A stretch of DNA of 55,151 nucleotides from Candidatus Nealsonbacteria bacterium (GTDB lineage: Bacteria; Planctomycetota; Planctomycetia; Pirellulales; Thermoguttaceae), in assembly GCA_013202865.1 (NCBI GenBank), contig JABMRB010001404.1, forward strand, positions 1 through 55,151. Reading direction: 5' to 3'. Shown here in pieces: positions 13,770 to 53,463 of the stretch (the first letter of the stretch is position 1; each line of letters starts with the position of its first letter). The position numbers and the translations under genes were made by a program. A model generated the notes under the pieces. It worked only from the letters and a program-made list of their open reading frames with translations, was not told the origin of the DNA and searched no databases.

Positions 13770-13775
13770 TATCCC

Positions 13776-36942: not shown

Positions 36943-37035
36943 CAGCAGGTTGGGCATGGTCGCGTGCGCAGTCCATTGGCGCAGTGAAGAGGTCCGCTCA
37001 CCTGGATACTGGGCATCCGCTCATTAGAACGCAGC

Positions 37036-37251: not shown

Positions 37252-37360
37252 TCTGCTGCATTCGTCGGCTGCGACTCTCCGTCGTACCCAACCAGAAAAA
37301 TCGGCGATGCTGCGAGGCGTGCGTCGACGAAAACACCTTGTTTGAATTCGGTACACCGTA

Positions 37361-37888
37361 ATGACACACGACACACATGATATTGCGGCTTCGGACGGGC
37401 CCTGTTTGCCGACCGCCTTTCAAGAAGGGCCGATCGAAGGGGTTGTTTGCAGACAGCTCACATCTTACGAGGACGGCCGCGGGTGGCTGGTAGAACTCTA
37501 TCGAGAAGACGAGCTCGAGCCAGGCGACAATCCCATGATGGCCTACGTCAGTCAAACACTTCCGGGCGTGACTCGTGGACCTCATGAGCATCGCGAGCAG
37601 TCCGACTATTTCGCCCTCATCGGACCCGGCGACTTCAAGCTGTATTTGTGGGACAACCGTCCCGACTCCCCGACGTGTGGTCACAAGCAAACGCTGGTTG
37701 CGGGCGAGTCGAACTTGCAAGCCGTTCAGATACCACCGGGCGTCGTCCACGCCTACAAGTGCATCAGCGACGCCCCGGGCGTGGTCCTCAACTTCCCAAA
37801 CCGACTCTACGCCGGCCGGGGTAAGCGGGAGCCCGTCGACGAAATCCGCCATGAAGACGACCAAGACAGCCCCTTTGTGATGAACTAA
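37361..37888 (+). CDS. dTDP-4-dehydrorhamnose 3,5-epimerase family (RmlC-like cupin)
   Basis: [32 protein letters not shown]...[11 protein letters not shown] parallels the RmlC pattern R..SPT.G...IP.G..H. The exact reaction cannot be assigned. Confidence 0.68.
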
Positions 37889-37908
37889 CGGATCGGATTG
37901 TTGTGGAC

Positions 37909-38973
37909 ATGCGAACGATCATAGTAACTGGCGGTGCCGGCTTCATCGGCGCCAACTTCGTCCGGCAGTGGATCGGCGAAGAGCGAACCCGCGTGGTCAA
38001 CCTCGATAAGTTGACGTACGCCGGGAACCTCGACTCGTTGGCCGAGGTGATGGAGCATCCGCTCCACGTGTTCGTCGAGGGCGATATATGTGACGGTTCA
38101 CTGGTGAGCGGGCTATTGGAGAAGCATCGGCCACAGGCAGTGGTCAACTTCGCGGCGGAGTCGCACGTAGACCGCTCCATCGACGGGCCGGCTGCGTTTG
38201 TGGAGACAAACGTCGTGGGCACTTTCCGGATGCTGGAGGCGGCGAGACGACATTGGGAAGGCCTGCCCGATTCCGAGCAATCCGAATTCCGGTTCCTGCA
38301 AGTTTCGACCGATGAGGTCTACGGCTCATTGGGACCCGAAGGTTTGTTCACCGAAACCACTCCCTACGCGCCAAGTTCCCCCTATTCCGCATCCAAGGCG
38401 GCCGCCGATCATTTCGCCCGAGCCTACCACCACACCTACGGGCTGCCGGTGCTGACAACCAACTGCTCAAACAACTACGGACCATATCAGTTCCCCGAAA
38501 AGCTGATTCCGCTGATCACGCTGAACGCTCTGGAAGGAAAACCGCTGCCTGTCTATGGCGACGGACAGCAAATTCGCGACTGGCTCTACGTCGAGGACCA
38601 TTGCCGGGCAATTCGGACCGTGTTGAATCGAGGCACACCCGGCGAAGTGTACAACATCGGCGGCGATTGCGAGCAAGCCAATTTGGACGTCGTCAAAACA
38701 ATCTGTGCTATCGTCGATCAACTGCGGCCCGACTTGCCGCACGGGCCGTGCTCCTCGTTGATCACCTACGTTACCGACCGGCCGGGACACGACCGCCGAT
38801 ACGCGATCGATGCGAGCAAGATCGCCAGTGAATTGGGATGGAAACCACAAGAGAGCTTCCAGTCCGGACTCGAACGAACGGTCCGGTGGTTTCTCGACAA
38901 TCCGGCCTGGGTCGAACGAATCACGTCGGGAAAGTACCAGCGCGAGCGGCTGGGCCTCAACGCAACCAGTTGA
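37909..38973 (+). CDS. rfbB: dTDP-glucose 4,6-dehydratase
   Basis: [53 protein letters not shown]. Confidence 0.93.
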
Positions 38974-38989
38974 CTTCCAAGAGCAGACA

Positions 38990-39892
38990 ATGAATACGAC
39001 TCCACATTGCAGTAAAGGCATCATCTTGGCCGGCGGGTCCGGTACCAGGCTTCACCCCATCACCATGGCGGTAAGCAAACAACTGCTGCCTGTCTACGAC
39101 AAGCCGATGATCTACTATCCGCTGTCCACGCTCATGCTGGCCGGGATCCGCGACGTCCTGCTGATCTCCACGCCGGAGGACATCGGGGGGTTTGAACGAC
39201 TCCTGGGCGACGGCAGCCAAATCGGCATTTCCATCCGGTACGCCGTGCAGCCGAAGCCCGAAGGCCTGGCCCAGGCTTTCATCATCGGGCGCGAGTTTGT
39301 CGGCGGGGATCACGTGGCCTTGGTGTTGGGCGACAATATCTTCTACGGCCAGGGTTTTCAGGTAATGCTCCAACGGGCAGCCAGCCAACGCTCGGGTGCT
39401 ACCGTGTTTGGCTACGTGGTCAAGCACCCGCAGTCGTACGGCGTGGTCGAGATCGATGCTCAGGGAAACGCGATCGCAATTGAAGAGAAGCCGGCCCAAC
39501 CAAAATCGAATTATGCCGTTACGGGCCTCTATTTCTACGATGATCAGGTGGTCGACATCGCCGCCAACCTTCAGCCGTCTGCTCGCGGGGAACTGGAGAT
39601 CACCGACCTGAACCGCGTGTATCTCGAGCGGGGCCAGTTGCGGGTGGACGTCTTCAGCCGCGGCTTCGCGTGGCTCGACACGGGCACCCACGAGTCACTC
39701 TTGCAGGCGGCCACTTTTGTGGAAACGCTCGAACAGCGACAAGGCCTCAAAATCGCCTGCATCGAGGAAATCGCCTTGTACAAGGGATTCATCACGCTCG
39801 AACAATTCGAACAATTGGCCCGGTCCTGCAAAAGCAGCTACGGCCAGTATCTGCTCGACTTGCTCGCAAGGCCGGACGGCTTGGGGCGATAA
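38990..39892 (+). CDS. rfbA: glucose-1-phosphate thymidylyltransferase
   Basis: [63 protein letters not shown]. Confidence 0.93.
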
Positions 39893-39926
39893 GTTGGCCG
39901 CCAAACTCTGATCAAGGGATATTGTG

Positions 39927-40568
39927 ATGACAGCTACTCCAGAATACTGGCATTCCGAAAAGACACCGTGGGACTTCCCACTCTTGAGAACCTGTGTTGA
40001 TTCGCTAACGCAGCATATGCACCCCGGAATGCGAGTCTTGGATGTCGGCTGCGGTAATGGCTTCTGGGCTAACCGATTCTCGAAACAAGGATGCGAGGTT
40101 GTTGGGATTGATCCGTCTCGGAAAGGTGTTAAAAAGGCAAGGCTGGCATATCCGGCCATTCGATTTGAACAGTTAGAAGCTGGCCCAGACGTGCTATCAG
40201 AGCTGGCTGAAGATCCGTTCGACTTGGTAGTTAGTTTCGAGGTGATCGAGCACTGCTATGGGCCAATGACATGGGCTTCGGGTTGCTTCAACGCACTGAA
40301 GGCTCCAGGTACATTTATCTGTTCCACTCCGTATCACGGATACTTGAAGAACTTGGCGATATCCATCGTCAACAAATGGGACTGGCACTGGTTCCCTATT
40401 CGGGAAGGCGGGCATATCAAGTTCTGGAGCCGAGCAACGCTTGGTCGACTACTTGCCGAGACTGGATTTGACCGTGGCCACATCCAATTCAGGGGAGCCG
40501 GCCGATTGCCATTCCTTTGGAAGACAATGGTCGTGAAGGCAGTGAAGCAAGAGCACTCCACAATGTGA
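39927..40568 (+). CDS. class I SAM-dependent methyltransferase
   Basis: RVLDVGCGNGFWANRFSKQGCEVVGIDPS. Confidence 0.82.
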   Translation: MTATPEYWHSEKTPWDFPLLRTCVDSLTQHMHPGMRVLDVGCGNGFWANRFSKQGCEVVGIDPSRKGVKKARLAYPAIRFEQLEAGPDVLSELAEDPFDLVVSFEVIEHCYGPMTWASGCFNALKAPGTFICSTPYHGYLKNLAISIVNKWDWHWFPIREGGHIKFWSRATLGRLLAETGFDRGHIQFRGAGRLPFLWKTMVVKAVKQEHSTM

Positions 40569-40635
40569 GGTGGAGTGTCCAATTTCAGTAGCCGAAGTAT
40601 TAGAACACGCCAAGAACCTTTTTGAGTACACAACC

Positions 40636-42804
40636 GTGAGACAACTCGTTCAAAACCTTCGATCCGGCAACCTGACCGTTGAAAACGTACCGGCTCCCCT
40701 GCTGAGAGACCAGGGAATCCTCGTGCAAACTCGCGCCTCGCTGGTCTCCGCAGGAACCGAGCGGATGATGCTGGAGTTGGCGAAGAAGAGCCTGATCGGC
40801 AAAGCGAAGGAACGCCCCGATCTCGTCCGAAAAGTGCTCGATAAACTGCGCCGCGACGGGTTCCTAGCAACCTTCAAGACCGTCCGCGACAAGCTGGACA
40901 GTGACGTGCCCATGGGCTATAGCGCCTGCGGGAAGGTCACTGAGGTCGGCGCCCGGGCTCGCGAGTTCGAGGTGGGACAGTACGTCGCTTGTGCCGGCGC
41001 AGGCTACGCCAATCACGCCGAAGTGAACTACGTGCCCCGGCTGCTCGCCGTGCCCGTGCCGGAGGGCGTCACTCCCGAAGCCGCCGCCTATTCCACGGTC
41101 GGCACGATCGCCCTGCAAGGGGTCCGCAATGCGGACGTGCGAGTGGGTGAAACGGTAGTCGTGCTCGGACTGGGGCTGATCGGACAACTCACCGTGCAAC
41201 TGCTGAAGGCCTCCGGCTGCCGAGTCGTGGGACTGGATCTTGCCAAAGCTCGCGTGGAACTGGCGGCAGAAAACGGGGCCGACCTTGCCTTGGTGCTGGA
41301 TGGAGATCGTACCGACAAGGCAGTGATCGGATTCACTCGCGGCCGCGGCGCCGACGCGATCTTGATTACCGCGGCCACCGCCAGCAACGCACCGGTCGAA
41401 CAGGCCGCCGAATTGGCGCGTGACCGGGCCCGCGTGGTGATGGTCGGTGTGACGGGAATGCACATCCCCCGGACTCCCTATTTCAAGAAGGAACTGACGT
41501 TCATCGTGTCGCGTTCCTACGGCCCCGGGCGATACGACCCGCAGTACGAAGAACACGGCCACGACTATCCGGCCGGGTACGTCCGCTGGACCGAGAACCG
41601 TAACATTGAGGCCTTCCTGGACCTGGTGGCCGCCGGAAGCGTGCGACCGGAAGTATGCACCACGCATCGTTTCCCCGTCGGCGACGCGGAAGACGCGTTC
41701 GACCTGATCCTCACGAATAGCCAGCCGCACCTTGGCGTGGTCTTGACGTACCCCGAGGAGTCAGCGGAGAACGTCGCGGGGCAGTCGCAGAGGATTTCAT
41801 TGGTCTCCTCCAACGGAAAGAAGCCGACAGACAAGGTCGGCGTGTCGGTAGTGGGCGCCGGCGGGTTTGCACGATCGGTCCACCTGCCGACTCTTGCCAA
41901 GCTTCCGAACGTCTCCTTGCGAGGGATCGTTGATGCGTCTGGAATTGCCGCCAGCAGCGCCGGCAAGAAATTCGGCTTCGCATACTGTGCCTCGGACGAC
42001 GGCCAGGTCTTCGACGATAACCAGACCGACGCCGTGATCCTGATGACGCCCCATTCGCAGCACGCCGACGGCATCTGCCGCGCCTTGAAGGCCGGGAAGG
42101 CAGTGTTCGTCGAGAAGCCGCTGGCGATCAACCTCGAACAGGTCGATCAGATCCGCAAGACACTCGAGTCGCATCCGAATCGCCTGATGGTCGGATTCAA
42201 TCGACGGTTTTCTCCACTGGCAAAGCAACTGAAGGAGTTCATCGGTGGGCGAGGTCCGCTAACGGTCTCGTATCGTTGCAACGCGGGGCCGTTACCGACG
42301 GACCACTGGATCTCGGACCCCGCAGAGGGCGGCCGGATCATCGGCGAAGCCTGCCACTTCTTCGATTTCTTCGCCTACCTGACGGACGCGACTCCCCAAA
42401 CCGTCTCCGCGGCCGCTCCGTCTACCGGGTCGCCCGACGACGCAGTGGTCACGGTAACATACGACGACGGCTCGGTCTGCCAACTCACCTACACCACCGT
42501 AGGCCCCGCCTCCTTCAGCAAAGAACGCATCGAAGCCTTCGCCGGCGGTTGTGTGGGCGTCCTGGAAGATTTCCGCAGGCTTGAACTCCACGGCGGAGGC
42601 AAACGGGCCAGACGGCGGAAGACGCTACAAGCGGACAAAGGGCACGCCGCTGAGCTGGAGGCCTTTCTTGATGCCGTACAGGAGGGTCAAGAATCGCCAA
42701 TCCAAATCACCTCCCTCCTTGCAACAACCCTTACGAGCCTTGCCGCCTTGGAAAGCATGCGCTGTCAACGGTCTGTCGATTTGCCGGAACTCGGAGGACA
42801 GTAG
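40636..42804 (+). CDS. bi-domain oxidoreductase (MDR/Zn-ADH-like N-domain + Gfo/Idh/MocA C-domain)
   Basis: The N-half has the Rossmann motif GLGLIGQL. The C-half has VGVSVVGAGGFARSVHLP and VFVEKPLA. Start is uncertain: GTG 40636 gives MRQLVQNLRSG, typical of this family, and the ORF opens at 40570. Confidence 0.8.
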   Translation: MRQLVQNLRSGNLTVENVPAPLLRDQGILVQTRASLVSAGTERMMLELAKKSLIGKAKERPDLVRKVLDKLRRDGFLATFKTVRDKLDSDVPMGYSACGKVTEVGARAREFEVGQYVACAGAGYANHAEVNYVPRLLAVPVPEGVTPEAAAYSTVGTIALQGVRNADVRVGETVVVLGLGLIGQLTVQLLKASGCRVVGLDLAKARVELAAENGADLALVLDGDRTDKAVIGFTRGRGADAILITAATASNAPVEQAAELARDRARVVMVGVTGMHIPRTPYFKKELTFIVSRSYGPGRYDPQYEEHGHDYPAGYVRWTENRNIEAFLDLVAAGSVRPEVCTTHRFPVGDAEDAFDLILTNSQPHLGVVLTYPEESAENVAGQSQRISLVSSNGKKPTDKVGVSVVGAGGFARSVHLPTLAKLPNVSLRGIVDASGIAASSAGKKFGFAYCASDDGQVFDDNQTDAVILMTPHSQHADGICRALKAGKAVFVEKPLAINLEQVDQIRKTLESHPNRLMVGFNRRFSPLAKQLKEFIGGRGPLTVSYRCNAGPLPTDHWISDPAEGGRIIGEACHFFDFFAYLTDATPQTVSAAAPSTGSPDDAVVTVTYDDGSVCQLTYTTVGPASFSKERIEAFAGGCVGVLEDFRRLELHGGGKRARRRKTLQADKGHAAELEAFLDAVQEGQESPIQITSLLATTLTSLAALESMRCQRSVDLPELGGQ

Positions 42805-42957
42805 GCCGACGACCACGAATAGCCATTGGAACAGCCCTGAGAGAAAGAGGGAAGAGAGTTCGTTTGCCCCTTCGCGCTCATGGTGTGTTGTTAAGGCTGA
42901 TGACTCTCCAAGTACGATCATCAGCCAACCCGTCTCCCACAACTTGATGCGTCTACA

Positions 42958-43776
42958 ATGAGAATCGAAACGTCCGAAATAGACAAGAAGGGATTCCTAG
43001 CGACCCCCTCGCATTCTTCCAATCGTCGCTCTATTTGCAAAGCTGAGGGCCCTGAGCGCACCGTGGTATTGCTTCAGTCCTCCTACATTCCTTGGAGAGG
43101 CTACTTCCATCTAGTCAACAAGGCGGACATCTTCGTCTTCCACGATGACTTGCAGTACACGCACTCGGATTGGAGGAATCGCAACAAAATCAAGACAGCT
43201 AGCGGCTGGAGCTGGCTCACGATTCCCGCGGGGAGGAACGAGAAACGCCTGATTAGCGAGGTCGAAGTAGATGATCTGTCGTGGAAGGGAAAACACCGCC
43301 GGGCAATTGAGCAGAACTACTGCAAAGCTCCACACTTCGAGGGATACGCACATGTCTTGGATTACCTCTACGCGAATGACATCACGAATCTCGCGATGTT
43401 CAACCAGCGCGCTATCCGATTCATCGCAACATTGCTCGGCATATCGACAACGTTCCTCGACTCCCGAACGCTCAATGCCAAGGGACAGAAGACCGACCGA
43501 ATTGTTGACATTATGCTGAAGTTGGGCGCCACCAAGTACCTGTCCGGGCCGTCCGCTAGGTCGTACATTGAGCCAGGACAATTCGAGGCTGCCGGAATTC
43601 AACTTGAATACATCACTTATCGCTATCCAGAGTATTCCCAACTGTATCCCCCCTATTGTCCGCAGATGTCAATCCTCGATCTGCTGTTCATGACCGGGCC
43701 CGAGGCCCCAGCATACATCTGGGGTACGGAAGCCACGACACCTCCCCCTAACACTGAGTCCAGCCGCTCTTTGTAG
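42958..43776 (+). CDS. WbqC-family protein (second copy)
   Basis: VVLLQSSYIPWRGYFHLV...FHDDLQYTHSDWRNRNKI...WLTIP. The true start may be GTG 43063. Confidence 0.78.
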   Translation: MRIETSEIDKKGFLATPSHSSNRRSICKAEGPERTVVLLQSSYIPWRGYFHLVNKADIFVFHDDLQYTHSDWRNRNKIKTASGWSWLTIPAGRNEKRLISEVEVDDLSWKGKHRRAIEQNYCKAPHFEGYAHVLDYLYANDITNLAMFNQRAIRFIATLLGISTTFLDSRTLNAKGQKTDRIVDIMLKLGATKYLSGPSARSYIEPGQFEAAGIQLEYITYRYPEYSQLYPPYCPQMSILDLLFMTGPEAPAYIWGTEATTPPPNTESSRSL

Positions 43777-43809
43777 TCGCCGAATCTAACGGGAAAGAAC
43801 ACCGCTACC

Positions 43810-45039
43810 ATGACAACAATCCCCTTTAACACACCATTCATCGCAGGCAAGGAGCTCTACTACATCGCCCAGGCGGTGACGTTGGGCAACATTGGCGGCG
43901 ATGGTCAGTTCACCCGTAAGTGTTCGCGACTCCTTGAGGAACGGTTCAACATTCGCAAAGTGTTGCTAACACCGTCTTGCACGGCAGCTCTGGAAATGGC
44001 GGCGATGCTATGTGGTCTGGGCCCAGAAGACGAGGTGATCGTCCCTTCGTTCACGTTTGTTTCAACGGTCAACGCGTTCGTGCGAGTAGGGGCGAAGCCT
44101 GTGTTTGTTGACATTCGGCCCGACACGCTGAACATCGACGACAGCCTGATCGAAGAAGCCATTACTCCAAACACCAAGGCCATTTGGCCGGTCCACTACG
44201 CCGGAGTGGGATGCGAGATGGATCGCATCATGACCATTGCAGAGAAGCATGGCCTTCTAGTCGTGGAAGATGCGGCTCAGGGAGTCAACGCCTTCCACGA
44301 TAGTCGCGCGCTCGGCTCCATCGGCCATCTGGGCGCCTACAGCTTCCACGAGACGAAGAACTACATCTGCGGAGAGGGAGGCGCGTTGTGCATTAACCGT
44401 CCGGAATTCGTCGAGCGTGCCGAGATCATCCGCGACAAAGGCACTAATCGCCAAAAGTTCCTCCGCGGTGAGGTAGACAAGTACACGTGGGTAGACCTAG
44501 GCTCCTCCTATGTTCCCAGCGAGATCTGCAGTGCGTACCTGTACGCACAGCTTGAGATGGTTGACACTATCGCCGAGCGCCGCCGCCAGATCCATGAATT
44601 CTATCGGCAGCGTCTGGAGCCGCTTGAGGCGAAAGAAATGCTCCGACTACCCCACATCCCCGAGGACTGCCGGGGCGGCCATCACATGTTCTATGTCCTC
44701 CTGCCAGACGTAGCGACCCGCGATGGCCTGCTTGCCTATCTCAGGTCCCGTGGCGTTCATGCCGTCTTCCACTACGTGCCGCTTCACAGTTCCCCCATGG
44801 GGAAGAAATATGGTTACCGAGACGGTGACCTTCCCGTCACAGAGGAACTCAGTGGCCGGCTTCTGCGGTTGCCATTCTATCACAGCATCACCGAACAGGA
44901 ACAGATGCAGGTGGTCCAAGCAGTGGGCGAGTGTCTTCAGAGAAAGAACGCACAACGGGTGCAGCGCCAGCTTGCTGGTGATGTGCCGCGCTGCTTGGTC
45001 AATGTGCCTGGTGCCGCCTGCCCCGAGCATGATAGGTAG
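43810..45039 (+). CDS. wecE: dTDP-4-amino-4,6-dideoxyhexose (WecE/RffA-type) aminotransferase
   Basis: IPFNTPFIAGKELYYIAQAV, LTPSCTAALEMAA, VIVPSFTFVSTVNAF, AYSFHETKNYICGEGGAL, DKGTNR..F..GEVDKYTW. Confidence 0.85.
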   Translation: MTTIPFNTPFIAGKELYYIAQAVTLGNIGGDGQFTRKCSRLLEERFNIRKVLLTPSCTAALEMAAMLCGLGPEDEVIVPSFTFVSTVNAFVRVGAKPVFVDIRPDTLNIDDSLIEEAITPNTKAIWPVHYAGVGCEMDRIMTIAEKHGLLVVEDAAQGVNAFHDSRALGSIGHLGAYSFHETKNYICGEGGALCINRPEFVERAEIIRDKGTNRQKFLRGEVDKYTWVDLGSSYVPSEICSAYLYAQLEMVDTIAERRRQIHEFYRQRLEPLEAKEMLRLPHIPEDCRGGHHMFYVLLPDVATRDGLLAYLRSRGVHAVFHYVPLHSSPMGKKYGYRDGDLPVTEELSGRLLRLPFYHSITEQEQMQVVQAVGECLQRKNAQRVQRQLAGDVPRCLVNVPGAACPEHDR

Positions 45040-45087
45040 ATCGAATACTCGGTTTGTTAAGATTGGGATATCCAAGGAGTTACTACC

Positions 45088-46116
45088 GTGGCAAATCAAT
45101 CTGTACCCGTCCGACAACGCGACGTTCCGGAGAAGAGAACGGAAGTCGACCTTTCTGGCGATCAACAAATGGTGGATGCGTCTAGGCAACGCGTGACGGT
45201 TAGTGTGGTCATTCCGGTCTATCAATCGGAGCAAACGTTGCTGCCCCTGGTTACGCGGCTGCGCGACGTATTCGCCGAGATGGGTGTTGGCTACGAGATC
45301 GTGCTGGTGGACGATGCCAGCGCCGACGATTCATGGAAGGTCATGCAGCGGTTGAGATCCGAATACTCTGGAGTGAAGATCATTCAACACATGCGTAATT
45401 TCGGGCAGCACAAAGCCATTCTCTGCGGCTTGCGGCATTCGACCGGCGAGTTCGTGATTGGCATGGACGACGACCTGCAGCATCCGCCGGAAGAAATTCC
45501 GAAGCTGCTTGAAGCTCTTGAGGGAGACGAAGAGACGGACGTCGTTGTCGGGGCCTACGAGACAAAACGGCACTCCTGGCTCCGGAACTTGGGAAGTTGG
45601 GCGGTCAATCGGATCACTTCCCGTGTGTTTGGCATAGATCCGAACCTGAAGATGACCAGTTTCTACATCCTGCGGCGCAGTGTGGTCAAGGAAATGGCGA
45701 ATGCGACCTGCAACAACCCACGCATCAGCCAGCTTCTGCTCTTGACAACGAACCGCATCAAGAATGTGCGAGTGGCACATCACGCGCGACAGAACGGCCT
45801 GTCGGGTTATTCGTTTTCGAGACTAGTCACCGACGCGCTAGACAATATCCTCAGCAACTCGTCCCTCCCGCTACAACTGGTGAGCTACTTGGGATTCGGC
45901 TGCTCACTCATGAGCTTCGTGGTGTCCATCTGCTACCTATGCAAATATCTATTCGGCACCATTACGGTGCCAGGCTGGACTACCATCATACTACTTCTTC
46001 TGTTCTTCTTCGGCATTGTTTTGTTCTCGCTGGGTGTTGTGGGGGAGTACCTGATAAGAATCTTGAGGCAAGTGCAGCAGCCATCGCGATGCACCATCAG
46101 GCAGAAAGAGGTCTGA
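45088..46116 (+). CDS. ArnC/GtrB-like GT2 polyprenyl-phosphate glycosyltransferase
   Basis: VSVVIPVYQSEQTL, VLVDDASADDS, RNFGQHKAILCGL, GMDDDLQHPPEEI, and two C-terminal TM helices. AAGGAG lies before GTG 45088. Confidence 0.8.
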   Translation: MANQSVPVRQRDVPEKRTEVDLSGDQQMVDASRQRVTVSVVIPVYQSEQTLLPLVTRLRDVFAEMGVGYEIVLVDDASADDSWKVMQRLRSEYSGVKIIQHMRNFGQHKAILCGLRHSTGEFVIGMDDDLQHPPEEIPKLLEALEGDEETDVVVGAYETKRHSWLRNLGSWAVNRITSRVFGIDPNLKMTSFYILRRSVVKEMANATCNNPRISQLLLLTTNRIKNVRVAHHARQNGLSGYSFSRLVTDALDNILSNSSLPLQLVSYLGFGCSLMSFVVSICYLCKYLFGTITVPGWTTIILLLLFFFGIVLFSLGVVGEYLIRILRQVQQPSRCTIRQKEV

Positions 46117-46139
46117 CGAGCTGGCCTGAGCCCACCCGT

Positions 46140-46421
46140 ACGTGCGAGTTAGTGCATGCACTGCCCGATCGACGATCACCTCCTTGCCGAACCACGGATG
46201 CCATGGATAAACCACCTCTGCCTTGGTGCCATGGGTCTTCTGTTGTCGAGTTGTACAATGATCGCCGACCTCATTGGGCATTGATCCCAGAAGAAGGCGG
46301 CGATCCACTGGTCCCGAAGGAAGTGTACACGAGCGCCCGCTCGATCCAGATTCCGAAATGGCAAGGCTGGGCGAAGGGCGCCAAGGAGAAACTCGACCGA
46401 ATGATGTCCGAAGCGGCGTGA
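46140..46421 (+). mobile_element. relic of an IS transposase (C-terminal end of an rve/integrase-core domain)
   Basis: ...VVELYNDRRPHWALIPEEGGDPLVPKEVY matches the Y-N-x-x-R-P-H-x-A-L tail of IS3/IS481-type transposases. No upstream catalytic domain is present, and no terminal repeats were identified. Confidence 0.5.
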
Positions 46422-46674
46422 GCAGGGCCCCAACTCGGGCTCACCAGCAGCAGGGCCGCCCTTGCCTTGTCTTCGCCGTCGCCGACGTCCTCAGGGCGGG
46501 GCGAAGGACGTACGGCGGCGGCTGGGCTCACCGAGATCCTATTTCAGACACGAAACACCCCCTGAAGAACTCTCACACAAAATCGACCAGAAAAATTCCC
46601 CTTAAACTGCGAGTTAAGACACGCCGTCAACCGTGCTGTTCTCTGAAAGACCCTTCTCTGCGAGCGAAAAGAGA

Positions 46675-48201
46675 ATGATTCCTTCCTCGTTAGCCCGAAG
46701 AGTCGCGCTGCTACTGGTGCTAGCGGGTGCCACGTGTGGCCTGACTCGCTGTAAAACTACGTGGTTCGATGAGACAGCTTATGCGTCGTCCGCGGTCAAC
46801 TGGTGTGTGAACGGGAACACCGGGCCTTCAATCTATCCCGGCTTGGATGGGGCGGACGTTAGCATTTACCCGGCTCATGCAATCACGCTGGGAATGTTCT
46901 ACAACGTCTTCGGAATCGGCTTGCTGCAAACCCGGGCCTTCGGTCTGATATGCTATGTTGGGGTTCTTTGCACATTCTATCTCCTTGTCCGACAACTGGG
47001 TTGTAGAGCCGTTGTTGCACAAATGGCTCTGCTGCTCGTCGCCACTGATCGATCTTTAGTGTGGCAAGTACGAACTGGGCGACCTGATATCTTTGCAATT
47101 CTGCTGATATGTGCTAGTTCTTACGCGTTGGTGTATAGCGTACAGAAGTCGAACGGACATCTGGCCCGTCTTGCCGCGAGCCTTGGCGGCGCCTTTGCGC
47201 TTCTGGCACCTTTGGCGCACCCTTACACGGTACCGGCTGTACTGATTATTTGCCTAAGTTTCTTTGTTGCTTTGTGGCGGGGGAAGCTGTTCGGGCTCTT
47301 GCTAGTTCCTCTTCTGCTTGGGTGCCTGCTGCCTGCAATTCCATATCTCGGCTACCTATATTACCACCGAGAAGTAATCGTTCTGCTTTTCTTCCGTTCG
47401 TCCCAATTTCTCAACGAGGTGAACACCCAAACGCCCGGCCTTGGCGATCTTCTAAGGCAGGAGATTACCCAACGCTGGGTACCCGCGATCGCCGTCGAAC
47501 CCTTTCGACTTGTGCTAGCTCTGTGTGGCGTTGCGATTCTGTGGAAAAGGAATCGCTGTATCCTTGGCATCGTCTCAGTATGGATTGTAACGTACTTTCT
47601 GATTTGCTGGCTGAAGGTTCCGAAGGACACGCATTACCAAGTTTTGCAAATCACGATCCCGATGGGTGTCCTCGTGGCGATGACGATGGAGGCTGCGGGA
47701 ATTGCACTTGGCAAACGCGAGGCTGTCAGCACGTCCACTCTCGCAAGGACTGTGGCGATAATGTGGTGGTGTTCGTTTGCGGTCGGCATTGGACTATTGA
47801 TGCTGTATCCCTTGACTGCCATAATGCAGTGGCAGGAGCGTTCTCACAACAATCTGGTCTTGGAAATATCCAATTGCATTCCGCGGCACTCGATCGTGGC
47901 AGTGGATCCAAGTGCCTATTTTGCTTGCTTGGAAAACGACTGCAGGACCTGCTATTGGCGTCTCAAGGATCGTGGGTCCTGGGGAGATGAAGATATGCAG
48001 AAAACCTATCAGCGCGGCCTTCTGGATCGAGGGGTAGAATACCTCGTCCTGAATCACACATCATCACGATCTACTTCTCTCTCGAACCAGACTTGCCGAA
48101 TAGAATTCCTCGATACAATTGGGATGCCGAAAGCGAATCTTCCATTTGCGAAAGATCCTCCCTACCATTTCGATGTGTATCGCGTTGTAAGAGCCAAGTG
48201 A
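46675..48201 (+). CDS. GT-C fold glycosyltransferase (ArnT/PMT-like)
   Basis: Many TM helices. The first loop has TWFDETAYASSA (a DE motif as in ArnT/PMT enzymes), and RTGRPDIFAILL is also present. About 100-aa soluble C-terminal domain. Confidence 0.58.
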   Translation: MIPSSLARRVALLLVLAGATCGLTRCKTTWFDETAYASSAVNWCVNGNTGPSIYPGLDGADVSIYPAHAITLGMFYNVFGIGLLQTRAFGLICYVGVLCTFYLLVRQLGCRAVVAQMALLLVATDRSLVWQVRTGRPDIFAILLICASSYALVYSVQKSNGHLARLAASLGGAFALLAPLAHPYTVPAVLIICLSFFVALWRGKLFGLLLVPLLLGCLLPAIPYLGYLYYHREVIVLLFFRSSQFLNEVNTQTPGLGDLLRQEITQRWVPAIAVEPFRLVLALCGVAILWKRNRCILGIVSVWIVTYFLICWLKVPKDTHYQVLQITIPMGVLVAMTMEAAGIALGKREAVSTSTLARTVAIMWWCSFAVGIGLLMLYPLTAIMQWQERSHNNLVLEISNCIPRHSIVAVDPSAYFACLENDCRTCYWRLKDRGSWGDEDMQKTYQRGLLDRGVEYLVLNHTSSRSTSLSNQTCRIEFLDTIGMPKANLPFAKDPPYHFDVYRVVRAK

Positions 48202-48221
48202 GGTGCCCGGCGGTTAGCAAG

Positions 48222-48242
48222 AACCTCAGAGACCCTGAGGTT
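48222..48242 (+). terminator. stem-loop 20 nt after the GT-C stop (no U-tract)
   Basis: AACCTCAG-AGACC-CTGAGGTT, a perfect 8-bp stem. It is followed by GCAACG rather than a T-run, so terminator function is doubtful. Confidence 0.2.
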
Positions 48243-48446
48243 GCAACGAAAGTGTGAGTACGCAGGAGTGCTTCTTGCAGTTCGCTCAATGAGGATACTA
48301 TTCCTAAGCCATTACCTCCCTCCGGGAGTCCGCCAGCCCTAGGCCATCGCAATATATGCTTATCCGAGACGCACCGACACACGATGCTGAATGCTGCGAG
48401 AACCCACGCGATGAGTGAAATCACAATGGATAGGAATTAGCCACCG

Positions 48447-49682
48447 ATGCGCATCCTTTACGTTTCCCAGTACTTTCCTCCCGAGATGGGAGCGCCAGCT
48501 GCGCGCGTTTACGATCTCAGCAAGGAGTGGGTACGGCTTGGCCACGACGTCACCGTCCTGACGGCTTTTGCTCACCATCCGCTTGGAATCAAGGCGCCAC
48601 AAGACCGCCGGGTCCTGACGCGGCGGGAGCGGGTTGACGGTATTGATGTAGTGCGCGCGTATGTCTATGCTGTTCCCAACAAAGGAACTGCAAAACGCAT
48701 GCTGTCGTACGCGTCATTCATGCTCTCAGCGACGGTGTTGGGGAGAATTCGAGTTTGCCGACCCGACGTGGTGATTGCCACCTCTCCTCAACTGTTATGT
48801 GGTCTAGCCGGCTATTCTCTGGCGAGGATGATGCGAGTGCCCTTTGTGTTCGAGGTACGGGATCTCTGGCCAGAAACCATGGTCGCGATCGACGCGGTGA
48901 AAGAAAAGAGCCTTGTCTTCCGTGGACTGCGTGCTCTTGCCCGCGCCTTATACACGCGCTGCGATCGCATCGTCACTGTGGGTGAAGGATATGCCGAGAG
49001 CATCAACAGACTCTACGGCATTGACCGCAGTAAAATGGGCATAGTCCACAATGGGATCGACCTGGAGCTCTTCAGACCAAGCCCCAAGGCGAATGACGTG
49101 CGACAGGAGTACGGCTGGTCAGACAAGTTCGTCGCGATGTATCTCGGAACACATGGGATGTGCCATGGTCTGGATTCTGTGCTGAAGGTCGCCCGAGAAA
49201 TGCGACACGATGGCAAGAGACTGTTCGTCTTCGTCGGCGAGGGAGCAGAGAAAGGTCACCTCAAAGGTCTTGCTGCACAATGGCGATTGCCGAACGTTCA
49301 GTTCATAGACCAGCAGCCGAGAGACCGGGTTCCTAAGTTCTATGCGGCCTGCGACATAGGAATAGTCTGTTTGCGCGACAGCCCTCGTTTTAGGGAAGTG
49401 CTGCCATCCAAGATCTTCGAGTATCTCGGAATGGAGCGTCCGGTGTTACTAAGTGTTGATGGTGAAGCGCGCAGACTTGTGGAGAACGCCGGGGCTGGCG
49501 TCTGTGTTCCGCCGGAGGACACCGACGCAATGGTCTCCGGGATCGAACGGCTTTGTCGAGAACGGCGGCAACTGGAGGAGATGGGCCGGAATGGGAGGGC
49601 TTACGTTTCGCGGCATTTTGATCGGAAGAAACTTGCCGAGAAGTACATTTCGATTCTTGAAGAAGTCATAGCAAAGCAGTAG
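48447..49682 (+). CDS. family 4 glycosyltransferase (WbuB-like)
   Basis: MRILYVSQYFPPEMGAPAARVYDLSKEW and LPSKIFEYLGMERPVLLSVDGEA. Confidence 0.85.
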   Translation: MRILYVSQYFPPEMGAPAARVYDLSKEWVRLGHDVTVLTAFAHHPLGIKAPQDRRVLTRRERVDGIDVVRAYVYAVPNKGTAKRMLSYASFMLSATVLGRIRVCRPDVVIATSPQLLCGLAGYSLARMMRVPFVFEVRDLWPETMVAIDAVKEKSLVFRGLRALARALYTRCDRIVTVGEGYAESINRLYGIDRSKMGIVHNGIDLELFRPSPKANDVRQEYGWSDKFVAMYLGTHGMCHGLDSVLKVAREMRHDGKRLFVFVGEGAEKGHLKGLAAQWRLPNVQFIDQQPRDRVPKFYAACDIGIVCLRDSPRFREVLPSKIFEYLGMERPVLLSVDGEARRLVENAGAGVCVPPEDTDAMVSGIERLCRERRQLEEMGRNGRAYVSRHFDRKKLAEKYISILEEVIAKQ

Positions 49683-49717
49683 TCAGCCGCGTCGCAACAA
49701 CCTCTGAAAGAACAGCA

Positions 49718-50512
49718 GTGTCCACGTTGACCAAGTACGTTTTCGTCCAAGACGACCCATTCTATCTTCCCAAAGTACTTGACAAGTACTTGCGCGAGTT
49801 CTCCGATTCGACAGTCGGGATCAACGTACAGTCGGTTACGATGGGCAAGCGGACCGTTTTCCGTACGGCCTGGGAGTTGCTCAGACTCTACGGTCCCTAC
49901 TACTTCCAGTGGAAACTTCGCCGATTCATGTGGACTCGAATAAAGGCAAAGGTCTGCAATGACATATTTCGGTCGACCTCACACTGCTATTCTATCCGAG
50001 CAGTAGCTCGAAAGTACGGAGTACCAGTGGATGAAACAGAAAGTGTCAACGGTGAGGGGTTTCGGGCGTTGTTGCGCGAGAAAGGCGTCGAACTGATTGT
50101 GTCAGTTTCTGGCACTGAGTTTTATGGAAAGAAGCTACGAGAACAGACGCCCCGTGGGATCGTGAATTGCCATGGAGCGCTACTGCCGAAGTATCGAGGC
50201 CTGATGCCTTCTTTCTGGACCTTGGCCAACGGTGAACGTGAAGGTGGTGTGACGGTTCACTTCGTCGGGGACAAGTTGGATAATGGACCGATCGTGGTTC
50301 AGCGGCGTTACCGGATCCATCCGCATGATACGCTCGAGGATATCATGGCTCGAAGCAAGGATCTCGCGGCGGAAGCGATAATCGACTCCGTTCGGATGCT
50401 CGAACGAGGAAAGGCCACGCTGCTACCTAACGATGAGGGGGCGACTTGTTACTCGGTACCCACTCGAGCTGATGTAAAGCGATTCCGGAACCACGGCCAT
50501 CAGTTCTTCTAG
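49718..50512 (+). CDS. formyltransferase family protein (Fmt / ArnA N-domain-like)
   Basis: VNCHGALLPKYRGLMPSFWTLANGEREGGVTVHFVGDKLDNGPIVVQ. Confidence 0.8.
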   Translation: MSTLTKYVFVQDDPFYLPKVLDKYLREFSDSTVGINVQSVTMGKRTVFRTAWELLRLYGPYYFQWKLRRFMWTRIKAKVCNDIFRSTSHCYSIRAVARKYGVPVDETESVNGEGFRALLREKGVELIVSVSGTEFYGKKLREQTPRGIVNCHGALLPKYRGLMPSFWTLANGEREGGVTVHFVGDKLDNGPIVVQRRYRIHPHDTLEDIMARSKDLAAEAIIDSVRMLERGKATLLPNDEGATCYSVPTRADVKRFRNHGHQFF

Positions 50513-50549
50513 AGGTGGGAAACAACGAGTGAGAGAAACACCGCGTATC

Positions 50550-51416
50550 ATGCATGCCTTGTCCTTCGATATCGAGGATTGGTTCCACATCGTCGAGACT
50601 GAAGCTGGTGAGAACCCGCATCAGTGGTCGGCGTTTCCGTCCATTGTTGAAGGTCGCACCCGTCAGATCCTCGAATTGCTGAGAGAATTCGACGTGCGGG
50701 CGACATTTTTCATTCTGGGATGGGTGGCCGAACGGTATCCCAGCGTCGTTCGCATGATCGCCGACGAGGGGCATGAAATTGGAACACATTCGTTTTGGCA
50801 CCGGAAGGTCTACGAACTGACCCCGGAGGCTTTCCATGAAGACCTGCTTGATTCCATTGATGTGATCCGCGAGCATTCGGGAGTTGAAGTACACGGCTTC
50901 CGCGCCCCGTCGTTTTCGATCATCCCGGGTACGGAGTGGGCGTTCGACGTAATCAGAAAGGTTGGATTGAAATACGATGCCAGTCTCTTTCCTGCTCGAC
51001 GTGCCCACGGCGGCTATCCTTGTGAGTGTGGTCCCCATTTGCAGAACGGAAGGGACTCCGAACCGATTCCCGAGCTGCCGATGAGTGTTCTGCCGTTGGG
51101 GCCCTTTCGCTTCTGCTTTTCTGGAGGGGGCTATTTTCGTCTTTTGCCGGCCTGGCTAATTGAACGGGGTTTCGAGCTTGCCGAAAGGGCGAAACGGCCT
51201 GCTGTGGTCTATCTTCATCCACGCGATTTCGCAACGGACTGTCCGGTAGCCGCCATGTCGGCGTTCCGTCGCTTCAAGTGCTATGTCGGCCAGGGAAGCA
51301 CCGAGGGGAAACTTCGACGATTGCTTGAGAAATATCGTTTCACGACGTGCTACGAGGTCTTACGGCATGCTAATCTTGCACCGTTGGTGACGGCGGAGGC
51401 TGAGGTCCTGCGGTGA
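50550..51416 (+). CDS. NodB-type polysaccharide deacetylase (PEP-CTERM-locus / ArnD-like subfamily)
   Basis: HALSFDIEDWFH and ATFFILGWVAERYPSVVRMIADEGHEIGTHSFWH. Confidence 0.8.
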   Translation: MHALSFDIEDWFHIVETEAGENPHQWSAFPSIVEGRTRQILELLREFDVRATFFILGWVAERYPSVVRMIADEGHEIGTHSFWHRKVYELTPEAFHEDLLDSIDVIREHSGVEVHGFRAPSFSIIPGTEWAFDVIRKVGLKYDASLFPARRAHGGYPCECGPHLQNGRDSEPIPELPMSVLPLGPFRFCFSGGGYFRLLPAWLIERGFELAERAKRPAVVYLHPRDFATDCPVAAMSAFRRFKCYVGQGSTEGKLRRLLEKYRFTTCYEVLRHANLAPLVTAEAEVLR

Positions 51417-51510
51417 GGCACCCCCCGTTGGCTTCGTGTCAGGCAAGCGCCACCCGGGCTAGCCGTGATGTTGAGCGGGCTCGGGGGGACCACTTTGGAA
51501 TGACACGATC

Positions 51511-53418
51511 TTGTTGAACTCTTCGGATATCCCCGCGAGACTGGCTTGGTCTGATTGGGCAGGCCGCTGGTGGTATATCTTGCGATACCACCGCAAGTCG
51601 CAATTGGCCATGCGGCTGGTGAACGTTGCGCGGCGGCGATTGCTCGGGCTGACTGGCGGCAGACGCTACCGGAGCTTCTCGGACGTTTCGCCTCGCTTGC
51701 GAGAAAACCCCGATCTGACCGCTTTGACGGCCCAGAAGCTTGCCGGTCGCACGGCGAACGGGGCGTCCGCAAGGGCCGCTGAGATTATCGACGGCCAATT
51801 CGAGTTTCTCGGCCAGCAGCACGCCCTGCCGGACCCGATCGACTGGCGGCTGAAGTGCCGGCCGGAAGCGTCGCACCTGTGGCGGTTCGTGCTGCACTAC
51901 AACGAGTTCCTCCTGGACCTCGCGGCCGAAGGGCGTCAGCGGGGCACAACCGCGTGGTACGACCGTGCCTGGGACCTCGTCCGGCAGTGGATCGAGGGCA
52001 ATTCGCTCCGCGACGCACGTGTCCTGAACGATGCGTGGCATCCGTACTGCATTTCGCGCCGGCTCCCTGCCTGGATCTTGCTCTGGACGGCTTCGCCTCC
52101 GGATGGTGAGTTGCGAGAACAGGTCCTGCGTAGCGTGGTCGCCCAGGCGATGTATCTCCAGAAGCACTTGGAATGGGACGTGCGAGGCAACCATCTTCTA
52201 GAGAATGCCAAGGCACTCGTGCTGGCAGGGGCGTTCCTCGAGGGCCCCGATGCCGACCGGTGGCTTCGACGGGGAAGCGAAATCCTGCGAAAGGAGCTTC
52301 GCGAACAGATTCTGCCCCACGGCGAGCATTTTGAACGTTCATCCATGTATCACGCACTGATGCTCGATGTCGTGCTGGACGTACGGGATGCCACGAAGAC
52401 CGTCGTGCCGGACCTGTCTGAATTCTGCGCCGAAACGGCCGACAAGATGGCGGCCTTCCTGGAACAAACAGTCCACCCAGACGGCGAGATCCCGCTGCTG
52501 GGCGATGCATGCTTTGGTGAGACGCCACCCGCCGAGCATCTGATCACCCGGGCCACGCGTCAAACTGCCGAGACGACACGCGTCGCTTCCGGAACGGCCC
52601 AGCCAAGCGGTTCAGAGCCCAGTACGCGTACGCCGGGTGACTACTGGATCTATCGGCACGATGGGGACTTCCTGCTGTTCGATGCCGGTCCGGTAGGGCC
52701 CGATCACCTGCCGGCCCATGCGCATGCCGACTTGCTCACCTTTGAAGCGACGGTCCGAGGCCGCCGGCTGTTTGTCGACAGCGGTGTGTTCAACTACCAG
52801 GACGACGCGATGCGCCGTTACTGTCGATCGAGTGCCGCCCACAACGTCTTGACGATCGACGACCGGGATCAATGCGACGTATGGTCGCGATTTCGCATGG
52901 GGTACCGTGGTTGGCCTCGCGGCTTCGCGTCGGGAGAGACCCACGGCTTCCACTGGGCTCGCGCTTGCCACAACGCGTACCGCCGGCTCGGGGTACCCAC
53001 GGTCGGCCGTTGGGTTGCTTGTCGGCCGGACGGGCCGTGGTTCTTTGTCGATTGGGCGGAGGGAAAGGGTACCCACAAGCTCACGAGTCGGCTGCACCTG
53101 CACCCCGACTTTGACGCGGAAGTTAGTGCGGCAGACGAAGTGCTGATTCGTGGTCCGGGCGGCGCCTATCGTCTGCGGGCTCTCACTCCCGGCTCGGTCG
53201 CCGTCACCAAGGGATGGTACTGCCCGGGATTTGGGCGCCGAATTGCGACCTCCGTGGTAGAGTGCAGTGCAACGGTGACCTTGCCCGCCGTGTGTGGATG
53301 GTTCTTCGCTCCGGAAGACGTCGACGGGGAAGCGGCTCTCAGCCGTGACGACGGGCAGGAGCCCGTGCTTTCGTGGCGCGACGACGTGAACCGATTACAA
53401 CTGCAACCGTTTGCGTGA
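51511..53418 (+). CDS. heparinase II/III-like family protein, no signal peptide
   Basis: DAWHPYCISRRLPAW, GNHLLENAKALVLAG, PHGEHFERSSMYH, HPDGEIPLLGD, HAHADLLTFE, AAHNVLTID. The N-terminus is not hydrophobic. Confidence 0.75.
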   Translation: MLNSSDIPARLAWSDWAGRWWYILRYHRKSQLAMRLVNVARRRLLGLTGGRRYRSFSDVSPRLRENPDLTALTAQKLAGRTANGASARAAEIIDGQFEFLGQQHALPDPIDWRLKCRPEASHLWRFVLHYNEFLLDLAAEGRQRGTTAWYDRAWDLVRQWIEGNSLRDARVLNDAWHPYCISRRLPAWILLWTASPPDGELREQVLRSVVAQAMYLQKHLEWDVRGNHLLENAKALVLAGAFLEGPDADRWLRRGSEILRKELREQILPHGEHFERSSMYHALMLDVVLDVRDATKTVVPDLSEFCAETADKMAAFLEQTVHPDGEIPLLGDACFGETPPAEHLITRATRQTAETTRVASGTAQPSGSEPSTRTPGDYWIYRHDGDFLLFDAGPVGPDHLPAHAHADLLTFEATVRGRRLFVDSGVFNYQDDAMRRYCRSSAAHNVLTIDDRDQCDVWSRFRMGYRGWPRGFASGETHGFHWARACHNAYRRLGVPTVGRWVACRPDGPWFFVDWAEGKGTHKLTSRLHLHPDFDAEVSAADEVLIRGPGGAYRLRALTPGSVAVTKGWYCPGFGRRIATSVVECSATVTLPAVCGWFFAPEDVDGEAALSRDDGQEPVLSWRDDVNRLQLQPFA

Positions 53419-53463
53419 TCGGGACCTTCGGTACGGCACAGAACGTCGTTACGACCAGCCCAC

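Follow-up and report, generated by a model that had tools for sequence, protein, structure and literature searches.

The stretch of DNA analysed here (55,151 nucleotides, positions 1 to 55,151 of contig JABMRB010001404.1 in assembly GCA_013202865.1; hereafter the window) is one long + strand glycan locus, and its positions 37361-51416 are of particular interest. A first-pass annotation had read these genes as one Arn-like pathway, in which an amino sugar built on a thymidine diphosphate (dTDP)-6-deoxyhexose scaffold is formylated, loaded on a lipid carrier, deformylated and transferred. Our results suggest that this 14-kb stretch is most likely not one pathway, and that three modules are juxtaposed here within a large locus for a sulfated surface glycan that depends on a transporter of the ATP-binding cassette (ABC) type. 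The explanation that we favour as a whole, with a confidence slightly better than even, has three modules (A, B and C), includes a lipid-carrier amino-deoxysugar branch and sets the formyltransferase and deacetylase apart. From the Arn-like proposal a three-gene core survives, namely a WecE-type aminotransferase, a family 2 glycosyltransferase (GT2) and a GT-C glycosyltransferase; the formylation and deformylation steps and the five-gene analogy do not. The genes of this stretch are listed below. All those named in the first-pass annotation were recovered by Pfam, NCBIfam and PDB profile matches, in the same order, on the + strand and at or near the positions given there.

37361-37888, + strand: divergent cupin of the dTDP-sugar isomerase/epimerase family (PF00908, 44.7 bits, gathering score 27)
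37903-38973, + strand: RmlB, dTDP-glucose 4,6-dehydratase (TIGR01181, 500 bits, cut-off 365)
38990-39892, + strand: RmlA, glucose-1-phosphate thymidylyltransferase (TIGR01207, 488 bits, cut-off 361)
39924-40568, + strand: class I S-adenosylmethionine (SAM) methyltransferase of 214 amino acids (aa) (PF13489, 80 bits)
40570-42804, + strand: two-domain oxidoreductase, 744 aa, ADH_zinc_N (zinc alcohol dehydrogenase-like) plus GFO/IDH/MocA
42958-43776, + strand: WbqC-family protein (PF08889, 252 bits)
43810-45039, + strand: WecE-type dTDP-4-keto-6-deoxyhexose 4-aminotransferase (NF008687, 581 bits, cut-off 375; TIGR02379, 543 bits, cut-off 435)
45169-46116, + strand: ArnC/GtrB-type polyprenyl-phosphate glycosyltransferase, the GT2
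46117-46674: non-coding gap of 558 bp, possibly a decayed transposase remnant
46675-48201, + strand: GT-C glycosyltransferase of a small ArnT/PMT_2-related subfamily
48447-49682, + strand: WcaI-like GT4 glycosyltransferase (41% identical to its ortholog in a Thermostilla marina locus)
49718-50512, + strand: Formyl_trans_N formyltransferase (PF00551, 94 bits)
50529-51416, + strand: NodB (CE4) plus DUF3473 deacetylase (PF01522, PF11959)

The case for a lipid-carrier branch begins with the GT2. It aligns end to end with solved ArnC (9hwj, 5.6e-43), with GtrB (5ekp, about 3e-36) and dolichyl-phosphate mannose synthase (7e-23) following, and it has two C-terminal hydrophobic, transmembrane (TM) helices (residues 264-282 and 300-318 of the long open reading frame, ORF), so that the first-pass description of an ArnC-like GT2 with two C-terminal TM segments stands. 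Homologs of about 308-320 aa support an ATG start at 45169. Against the ArnC equivalog model NF007986 the GT2 scores 166 bits, the cut-off being 529.

We compared the neighbourhoods of its closest homologs, at 53-65% identity. In one metagenome contig (L003), RmlB, RmlA, WecE and GT2 are contiguous and 75%, 69%, 72% and 65% identical to their window counterparts. In two others (L005 and L007), the gene directly upstream of the GT2 is RmlB; a DegT gene is close by in both, and in L007 RmlA as well. A Thermostilla marina locus (L057; GCA_054657455.1, 2390418-2411344) is syntenic with window positions 40570-55028 at 41-69% identity. It runs from the oxidoreductase (58%), directly upstream of WecE (68%) and the GT2 (53%), through a sulfotransferase, a GT4, the WcaI-like GT4 (41%), a second ArnC-type GT2, a 479-aa polytopic protein and an IS3 element to a heparinase (41%) and WecB (69%). 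This is the window order minus WbqC, the formyltransferase and the deacetylase, and its IS3 element is intact. The 479-aa protein is weakly related to the GT-C profile described below (hmmsearch 5.7e-08; hhalign probability 65%).

The association extends to plasmids of another phylum. WbqC homologs (37-41% identity) encoded on Azospirillum brasilense, Peteryoungia desertarenae and Rhizobium sp. Q54 plasmids each have, directly downstream, a GT2 of the same kind, which scores 155-180 bits against the profile of the window GT2 clade over a full-length alignment and has the RNFGQHKA motif and the C-terminal TM helices. A methyltransferase, a hexapeptide acetyltransferase, a conserved hypothetical protein and a small membrane protein of EamA or GtrA type follow the GT2; the methyltransferase, a class I SAM enzyme of about 210 aa, gave no tblastn match to the 214-aa one of the window. 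WecE (51-64%) is found within a few kb in Azospirillum and in Rhizobium Q54 (L055), the latter having RmlB and RmlA as well, while no such genes were detected around the Peteryoungia module. The GT2 of Rhizobium sp. N731 adjoins WecE, and WbqC and an EamA gene are close by. WecE is thus nearby in three of the four plasmid loci, and RmlB with RmlA in one. Since the WecE-GT2 association recurs in other genomes, a branch using a polyprenyl-phosphate-linked 4-amino-4,6-dideoxyhexose is plausible, and it appears to be new to the literature.

Could the adjacency be coincidental? The WecE product would then enter the main chain through Leloir enzymes, and the GT2 and GT-C would add a glucose or N-acetylglucosamine derived from a uridine diphosphate (UDP) sugar, as in Gtr systems. 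We regard this as unlikely. The many GT4 and GT2 enzymes of the locus could take dTDP-amino sugars, yet a second, DesI-like 4-aminotransferase (at 18262) already lies beside main-chain genes. ArnC is only slightly closer to the GT2 than GtrB, and two GT2 homologs (L009 and L010) have neither RmlB nor WecE within 10 kb; against this, WecE or RmlB adjoins the GT2 in the window, in L003, L005 and L007, in T. marina and in Rhizobium N731, and the WbqC-GT2 pairs of the other three plasmids, two of them with WecE nearby, come from a different phylum.

The GT2 relatives also show features of their own. In L003, L005, L007 and L009 the GT2 recurs with genes for an ATP-grasp ligase, a flippase-like LPG_synthase_TM protein, an octopine-dehydrogenase-like protein and a B12-binding radical-SAM-like protein, often together with RmlB, RmlA and DegT; this GT2/ATP-grasp/LPG_synthase_TM cluster may represent a pathway for an aminoacylated lipid-linked amino sugar. 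L010, whose GT2 is 63% identical to that of the window, has instead a PMT-type GT-C, a PglD-like acetyltransferase and two small EamA-like proteins. Beside the plasmid modules there are hypothetical proteins with 10-11 TM segments (L051, 11012-12595, - strand; L056, 348-2198, + strand), one of which has an HDDWY motif after the first TM segment (TM1). These polytopic proteins, of 527 aa in Azospirillum and 616 aa in Rhizobium N731, gave no Pfam match and no detectable relation to the ArnT-like GT-C profile. Such polytopic neighbours of the WbqC-GT2 modules may be novel GT-C-like transferases.

The recurrence of WbqC deserves comment. A second WbqC protein is encoded in the window (16393-17163; PF08889, 228 bits); it shares 29% identity with that at 42958, and its gene is closely followed by those for a sulfotransferase, a DesI/VioA-like dTDP-4-keto-6-deoxyglucose 4-aminotransferase (18262-19536; TIGR04427, 552 bits, cut-off 650) and a soluble GT2. 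Two pairs of WbqC with a 4-aminotransferase in one window, together with the repeats elsewhere, tie WbqC to 4-amino-4,6-dideoxyhexose synthesis. Our literature searches found no functional data for WbqC, for DUF3473 or for dTDP-based Arn-like systems. The name WbqC presumably comes from the cluster of E. coli O121 and Shigella dysenteriae 7, whose O unit contains N-acylated Qui4N; we take this as a lead and not as evidence.

The sugar-supply genes upstream (module A) are clear for the first two steps. RmlA and RmlB score well above their cut-offs, and homolog lengths support the ATG at 38990 as the RmlA start. The cupin reaches 28 bits against the RmlC equivalog (cut-off 155.75), gives a weak match to FdtA and has as its best PDB match 3ejk, a 'dTDP sugar isomerase' (2.4e-06). 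No RmlD-like protein was found among the ORFs scanned (nearly all those of at least 200 aa outside larger genes), in agreement with the first-pass annotation. Of the dTDP-L-rhamnose pathway, then, RmlA and RmlB are present, and the RmlC 3,5-epimerase and RmlD were not found. The methyltransferase at 39924-40568 is possibly a sugar methylase. The aminotransferase is WecE-type and not ArnB-type, scoring 197 bits against the ArnB model NF008658 (cut-off 631).

The GT-C protein of module B is, by its sequence, nearly an orphan: a word-indexed search of 5.8 billion proteins returned two relatives, and an exhaustive hidden Markov model (HMM) search gave 13 cluster representatives below 1e-30 and 70 below 1e-10. 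Its Pfam matches (PMT, 17 bits; PMT_2, 22.9 bits for a 47% identical homolog) are both under the cut-off. A profile of 121 relatives, by comparison, matches Cupriavidus metallidurans ArnT (5ezm) at 2.1e-25 over the whole TM domain, Pmt1 and Pmt2 matching more weakly. Structure prediction by AlphaFold2 with three sequences only was unusable (predicted local distance difference test score, pLDDT, 47.6); the run with the 121-sequence alignment, used instead, gave a pLDDT of 93.9 and a predicted template modelling score (pTM) of 0.94. The protein has about 10 hydrophobic segments by sequence and about 13 helices in the membrane part of the model, followed by a soluble alpha/beta domain of about 120 aa at the C-terminus. 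When the model was compared with the PDB by Foldseek, the top match was ArnT (5f15; E 1e-08, template modelling scores 0.59/0.56), and matches down to rank 32 were all GT-C enzymes, with ALG12, PglB, AglB, STT3, AftA and Emb after ArnT.

The DE loop that the first-pass annotation had seen in this protein is the WFDE motif just after TM1. Across the 121-sequence alignment its D32 hardly varies, and in the 11 closer relatives it does not vary at all; D138, in a GRPD motif, is nearly invariant in those 11. In the alignment with ArnT they match the aspartates of PDEGRY and NTLDM, which are the catalytically important D55 and D158. The residue equivalent to the phosphate-binding K85 of ArnT is not conserved. 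Profile, AlphaFold2 model and Foldseek comparison together confirm a GT-C fold with an ArnT-like active-site layout. A fold other than GT-C, which the first-pass annotation had named as a refuting outcome, is thereby ruled out. We place the start at 46675 because the N-terminus is conserved in homologs; a database gene call within 46633-48201 (P0001; 435 aa) begins at an internal methionine and omits TM1 and the catalytic DE loop.

Relatives of the GT-C were found in none of the GTDB species genomes, and the JGI metagenomes gave only two short contigs that were already known. The genomic context of the subfamily comes from L011 and L048 alone, the other loci (L001, L002, L012, L013 and L050) being too short. 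L011 has the C-terminus of WecB, the GT-C (40%), a GtrA-like gene (PF04138, 30.5 bits, above the cut-off) and RmlB (71%). In L048, the GT-C relative (35%) lies between a WecA-like gene and Wzm/Wzt; a soluble GT2 there was considered as an ArnC-type enzyme and ruled out by profile comparison. No ArnC/GtrB-type enzyme other than the GT2 at 45169 was recognised in the window, so that this GT2 is the natural donor-synthase partner of the GT-C, although the evidence for this pairing is thinner than that for the GT2 with the dTDP-amino-sugar genes.

Module C stands apart. Proteins 64-78% identical to its formyltransferase come almost exclusively from Planctomycetota, among them Phycisphaerales, Pirellulales and Isosphaeraceae. 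Together with the synteny to T. marina, this makes Planctomycetota the probable source of the whole locus. Enzymes with a Formyl_trans_N domain use an Asn-His-Asp triad and an HxSLLPxxRG-type motif, and both regions are intact here (N150-x-H152 and D188; NCHGALLPKYRG starts at residue 150 and LDNGPI at 187). Its PDB matches are ArnA, Fmt and FDH (1e-13 to 1e-16), then sugar N-formyltransferases (1e-7 to 1e-10); against the ArnA model NF005998 it scores 74.7 bits (cut-off 777), and it has no decarboxylase domain. The deacetylase carries the motifs FDIED, HSFWH, RAP and LHP and falls just under the cut-off of the XrtA-system deacetylase model TIGR03006 (243.9, cut-off 276.2). To judge from these motifs, both enzymes look catalytically intact.

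Scanning the species genomes of GTDB gave 32 Planctomycetota loci (L014-L045; mostly Phycisphaerales; 491 kb in total) with a formyltransferase 63-71% identical to that of the window. By tblastn, the GT4, the formyltransferase and the DUF3473 deacetylase (55-63% identical) occur in window order in most of them, and neighbour clustering placed the GT4 in 22 and the deacetylase in 20. Homologs of the window GT2 at 35121 and GT4 at 33883 and short-chain dehydrogenase/reductase (SDR) enzymes are further regular neighbours. No ORF of these loci matched the ArnT-like GT-C profile, the ArnC-type profile gave weak generic GT2 matches only, and tblastn found no WecE, DesI or WbqC, nor any DegT-family match within 10 kb on either side. 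Conversely, neither the formyltransferase nor the deacetylase is present in the T. marina locus or in any GT2-homolog locus examined. One of the 32, a Phycisphaerales locus examined with Pfam (L038), also has sulfotransferases and a hyaluronidase-like gene. With a conserved context of its own that lacks the ArnC-type GT2, the GT-C and the aminotransferase, an Arn-style cycle of formylation and deformylation is unlikely for this pair, and the formyltransferase and deacetylase would most likely form a separate Planctomycetota module outside the lipid-carrier branch.

This bears directly on the full Arn analogy, by which the GT2 would load an N-formylated dTDP-4-amino-4,6-dideoxyhexose, the NodB/DUF3473 enzyme would deformylate it and the GT-C would transfer it. 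The analogy is attractive: the five genes fit into 7.6 kb of a single strand, ArnC, the best solved relative of the GT2, uses a formylated donor, and the formyltransferase has an intact N-H-D motif with the ArnA formyltransferase domain among its best PDB matches. Moreover, the absence of an acetyltransferase beside WecE, unlike related modules, may call for some other N-acylating enzyme. We nevertheless judge it very unlikely. Co-occurrence of the five genes outside this genome, on which the first-pass annotation had staked the idea, did not materialise: the formyltransferase and deacetylase were not found with the other three in the 32 loci or in T. marina, where in the first case they travel together in 20-22 loci without ArnC-type GT2, GT-C or DegT, and no deacylase is present in the rhizobial or metagenomic relative modules. 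Nor did the role of the deacetylase as an ArnD-like deformylase hold up, as it is near TIGR03006 and its only NCBIfam matches at E <= 0.001 were nine NodB-type models, which speaks against ArnD only if the library holds an ArnD model.

In the explanation that we prefer, module C would instead act on the glycan backbone. By analogy, it most likely de-N-acetylates an N-acetylhexosamine of the backbone or of a lipid-linked precursor and re-acylates the amine with formate, and the GT4 at 48447 would be part of backbone assembly. Pairs of a GT4 and a deacetylase, with re-acylation, are familiar from PIG-A/PIG-L, MshA/MshB and BshA/BshB, and a deacetylase-FemAB pair in L048 serves as a further analogue. 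The GT4-formyltransferase-DUF3473 triad could be a Planctomycetota-wide route to N-formyl-hexosamine residues.

For the other two modules we propose the following sequence of events. In module A, RmlA and RmlB would make dTDP-4-keto-6-deoxy-D-glucose, and the cupin, the methyltransferase and the two-domain oxidoreductase may tailor the dTDP sugar. In module B, the WecE-type enzyme, going by its family, would make dTDP-4-amino-4,6-dideoxyhexose; WbqC, to go by its repeated adjacency alone, probably modifies the amino sugar; and the GT2 would move it onto polyprenyl phosphate at the cytoplasmic face, the donor being suggested by the conserved neighbourhoods. A flippase, of GtrA or EamA type in relatives, would export the lipid-linked sugar, and the ArnT-like GT-C would pass it to an acceptor on the periplasmic side, most likely the glycan exported by Wzm/Wzt, with lipid A or a protein as possible acceptors. 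It is tempting to see in this a widespread lipid-carrier pathway, spanning Planctomycetota, plasmids of Rhizobiaceae and Azospirillum, and metagenomic lineages, in which a dTDP-4-amino-4,6-dideoxyhexose tailored by WbqC or, in sister loci, by ATP-grasp ligases is loaded by one ArnC-like clade and transferred outside the cytoplasm, here by a new ArnT-like GT-C subfamily whose acceptor would be a sulfated planctomycete glycan or lipid A. That wider claim is tentative, and we would place it somewhat short of an even chance.

Several points weigh against the explanation favoured here. The choice of dTDP over UDP for the GT2 donor is one that we infer from gene neighbourhoods only, part of the synteny (L003 and T. 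marina) may reflect common descent and not independent selection, and the chemistry proposed for module C is drawn by analogy. The window has no N-acetyltransferase adjoining WecE, unlike the rhizobial loci and L010, so that the nearby formyltransferase could after all supply the N-substitution of the donor. The 558-bp gap means that GT2 and GT-C may have been joined by a rearrangement, or that the GT-C is poorly expressed. In L048, where alone a GT-C relative has long flanking sequence, no ArnC-type GT2 was found within about 10 kb downstream. Finally, the window holds no small membrane protein of the GtrA, EamA, ArnE/F or LPG_synthase_TM kind and hence no flippase candidate.

The last point is in line with the first-pass annotation, which had seen no ArnE/F-like flippase. 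Window ORFs of at least 80 aa with at least three TM segments are WecA, the exosortase, Wzm, Wzy_C and the GT-C; a sixth was discounted as antisense inside the WbqC gene. Flippase candidates do occur beside the relatives, GtrA-like in L011 and L055 and EamA-like in L010, L051, L054 and L056. VanZ was considered for this role and rejected, with only two strong hydrophobic segments and no precedent. As to the gap, the insertion sequence (IS) relic that had been placed between GT2 and GT-C was not borne out: the region around 46120-46420 matched nothing in Pfam, gave no tblastn match in plasmids and did not resemble the IS3 transposases of T. marina. A string in the frame of ORF 45597-46421, YNDRRPHWAL, is to our eye reminiscent of the C-terminus of an rve-type transposase, which no tool confirmed.

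These features raise the alternative that the GT-C is not the partner of the GT2 at all, having been placed there by a mobile-element rearrangement and using another donor or having a ligase- or oligosaccharyltransferase-like role, or that the branch is inactive. We think this decidedly unlikely. The gap has its transposase-like motif, and the missing flippase, perhaps with a polar insertion, would fit an inactive branch, but the GT-C is full length, confidently modelled and has kept its catalytic aspartates. The L048 relative has a WecA-like gene on one side and Wzm/Wzt on the other, and no ArnC-type GT2 is in view, whereas the L011 relative is next to a GtrA-like gene and to an RmlB that shares 71% identity with that of the window. 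And while ATP-grasp and LPG_synthase_TM genes, and not a GT-C, accompany the closest GT2 homologs, T. marina and L010 also join this GT2 clade with GT-C-like proteins, and in the window no other recognised ArnC/GtrB-type enzyme competes for the GT-C.

The wider locus provides the setting for these modules. In addition to the genes already given, it contains:

2409-3167, + strand: APS kinase
6398-7969, + strand: WecA-like initiating transferase
8769-9815: exosortase (best models XrtD, XrtW and XrtA, each under its specific cut-off)
9888-12101: tyrosine autokinase
12171-12812: DUF3485/EpsI-like protein
12865-15155: Wzm and Wzt
15149-15904, 17186-18220, 25595-26443 and 31279-32298: four sulfotransferase-family proteins
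32376-33767: Wzy_C/ligase-like protein
51511-53418: heparinase II/III-like protein, downstream of the deacetylase
53464-53889, + strand: VanZ

The window also encodes a NusG-like protein, two LuxR-type response regulators, many GT4 and GT2 enzymes and a pyruvyl transferase, and WecB follows VanZ, its start placed at 53886 from homolog lengths. Judged by the APS kinase, the four sulfotransferases and the heparinase II/III-like protein, the product of the locus is a sulfated polysaccharide. Two combinations are worth recording in their own right: the exosortase, the DUF3485/EpsI-like protein and the tyrosine autokinase share a locus with a Wzm/Wzt ABC exporter, and the gene of a nitroreductase-family protein (381 aa), an unusual partner in a glycan locus, directly precedes and overlaps that of a CsaB-like polysaccharide pyruvyl transferase (21964-24242). 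An ORF at 36984-37361 (125 aa) was rejected both as a gene, being Arg-rich and without family match, and as a GtrA-like flippase. A scan for promoters and terminators gave counts at chance level.

The association of WecE, WbqC, an ArnC-like GT2 and a GT-C is apparently recurrent, cross-phylum and uncharacterised. If the core of our proposal holds, periplasmic glycosyl donors would gain a new class, the polyprenyl-phosphate-linked 4-amino-4,6-dideoxyhexoses, and dTDP sugars would count among the substrates of ArnC/GtrB-type enzymes. The long-orphaned WbqC family (PF08889) would also gain a context, acting on the product of a WecE- or VioA-type enzyme before or after lipid loading. Hosts of the module can be cultured (Azospirillum brasilense, Rhizobium spp. 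and Thermostilla marina), and the idea may thus be testable. The formyltransferase-deacetylase pair offers a caution of its own: co-linear sugar genes need not be one pathway, and this pair has its own context and probably its own chemistry.

How does the stretch compare with known systems? The formyltransferase shares the catalytic fold and motif of sugar N-formyltransferases (VioF, WlaRD and Rv3404c). It is no closer to them than to ArnA, Fmt and FDH, and the coupling to a sugar aminotransferase was not seen across its 32 ortholog loci. As to the Arn pathway itself, both systems have a DegT-family 4-aminotransferase acting on a nucleotide-linked 4-keto sugar, the window GT2 has the architecture of ArnC, and the closest structure to the window GT-C is that of ArnT, with the equivalents of D55 and D158 kept. 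The scaffold differs, however, being a dTDP-6-deoxyhexose (RmlA, RmlB, WecE) in the window and a pentose derived from UDP-glucuronic acid in Arn. The window lacks the ArnA decarboxylase domain and ArnE/F, no ArnD-type deformylase was recognised in it, its proteins score far under the cut-offs of the ArnB, ArnC and ArnA equivalog models, and the ArnT K85 equivalent is not conserved in its GT-C. We conclude that the window is not a member of the Arn pathway and that the resemblance to ArnC and ArnT is at the level of family or fold.

Other variants combine ArnC-like and ArnT-like enzymes. Francisella FlmF2/NaxD/FlmK, Bordetella LgmABCD and Rhizobium RgtE/RgtA-D deliver galactosamine, glucosamine or galacturonic acid through polyprenyl phosphate; they start from UDP sugars, and some have a deacetylase for the lipid-linked sugar that is tied to the ArnC/ArnT homologs. 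The deacetylase family of the window is unlike theirs in showing no such genetic tie. The pathways to dTDP-Fuc4NAc and dTDP-Qui4N in enterobacterial common antigen and O-antigens share RmlA, RmlB and WecE (or VioA) with the window. There, cytoplasmic glycosyltransferases use the dTDP sugar directly, whereas the window aminotransferase is coupled to a polyprenyl-phosphate GT2.

In overall design the core resembles three-component periplasmic glycosylation, defined for the Gtr (GtrA/GtrB/Gtr*), Klebsiella gmlABC and Citrobacter pentofuranose systems (Kelly et al. 2024, PMC11127046). Like these, the window encodes a GT-C together with a polyprenyl-phosphate sugar synthase within a glycan locus, which depends on an ABC transporter as in the Klebsiella example, and GtrA and EamA flippase candidates are found in relatives. 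A dedicated flippase (GtrA, SMR/EamA or MATE) is absent from the window. The likely donor also sets the window apart, as it would be a dTDP-derived 4-amino-4,6-dideoxyhexose; no report of a system with such a donor was found in the searchable literature, outside which most subscription journals lie. A further difference is that WbqC and the two-domain oxidoreductase are consistent extra partners here.

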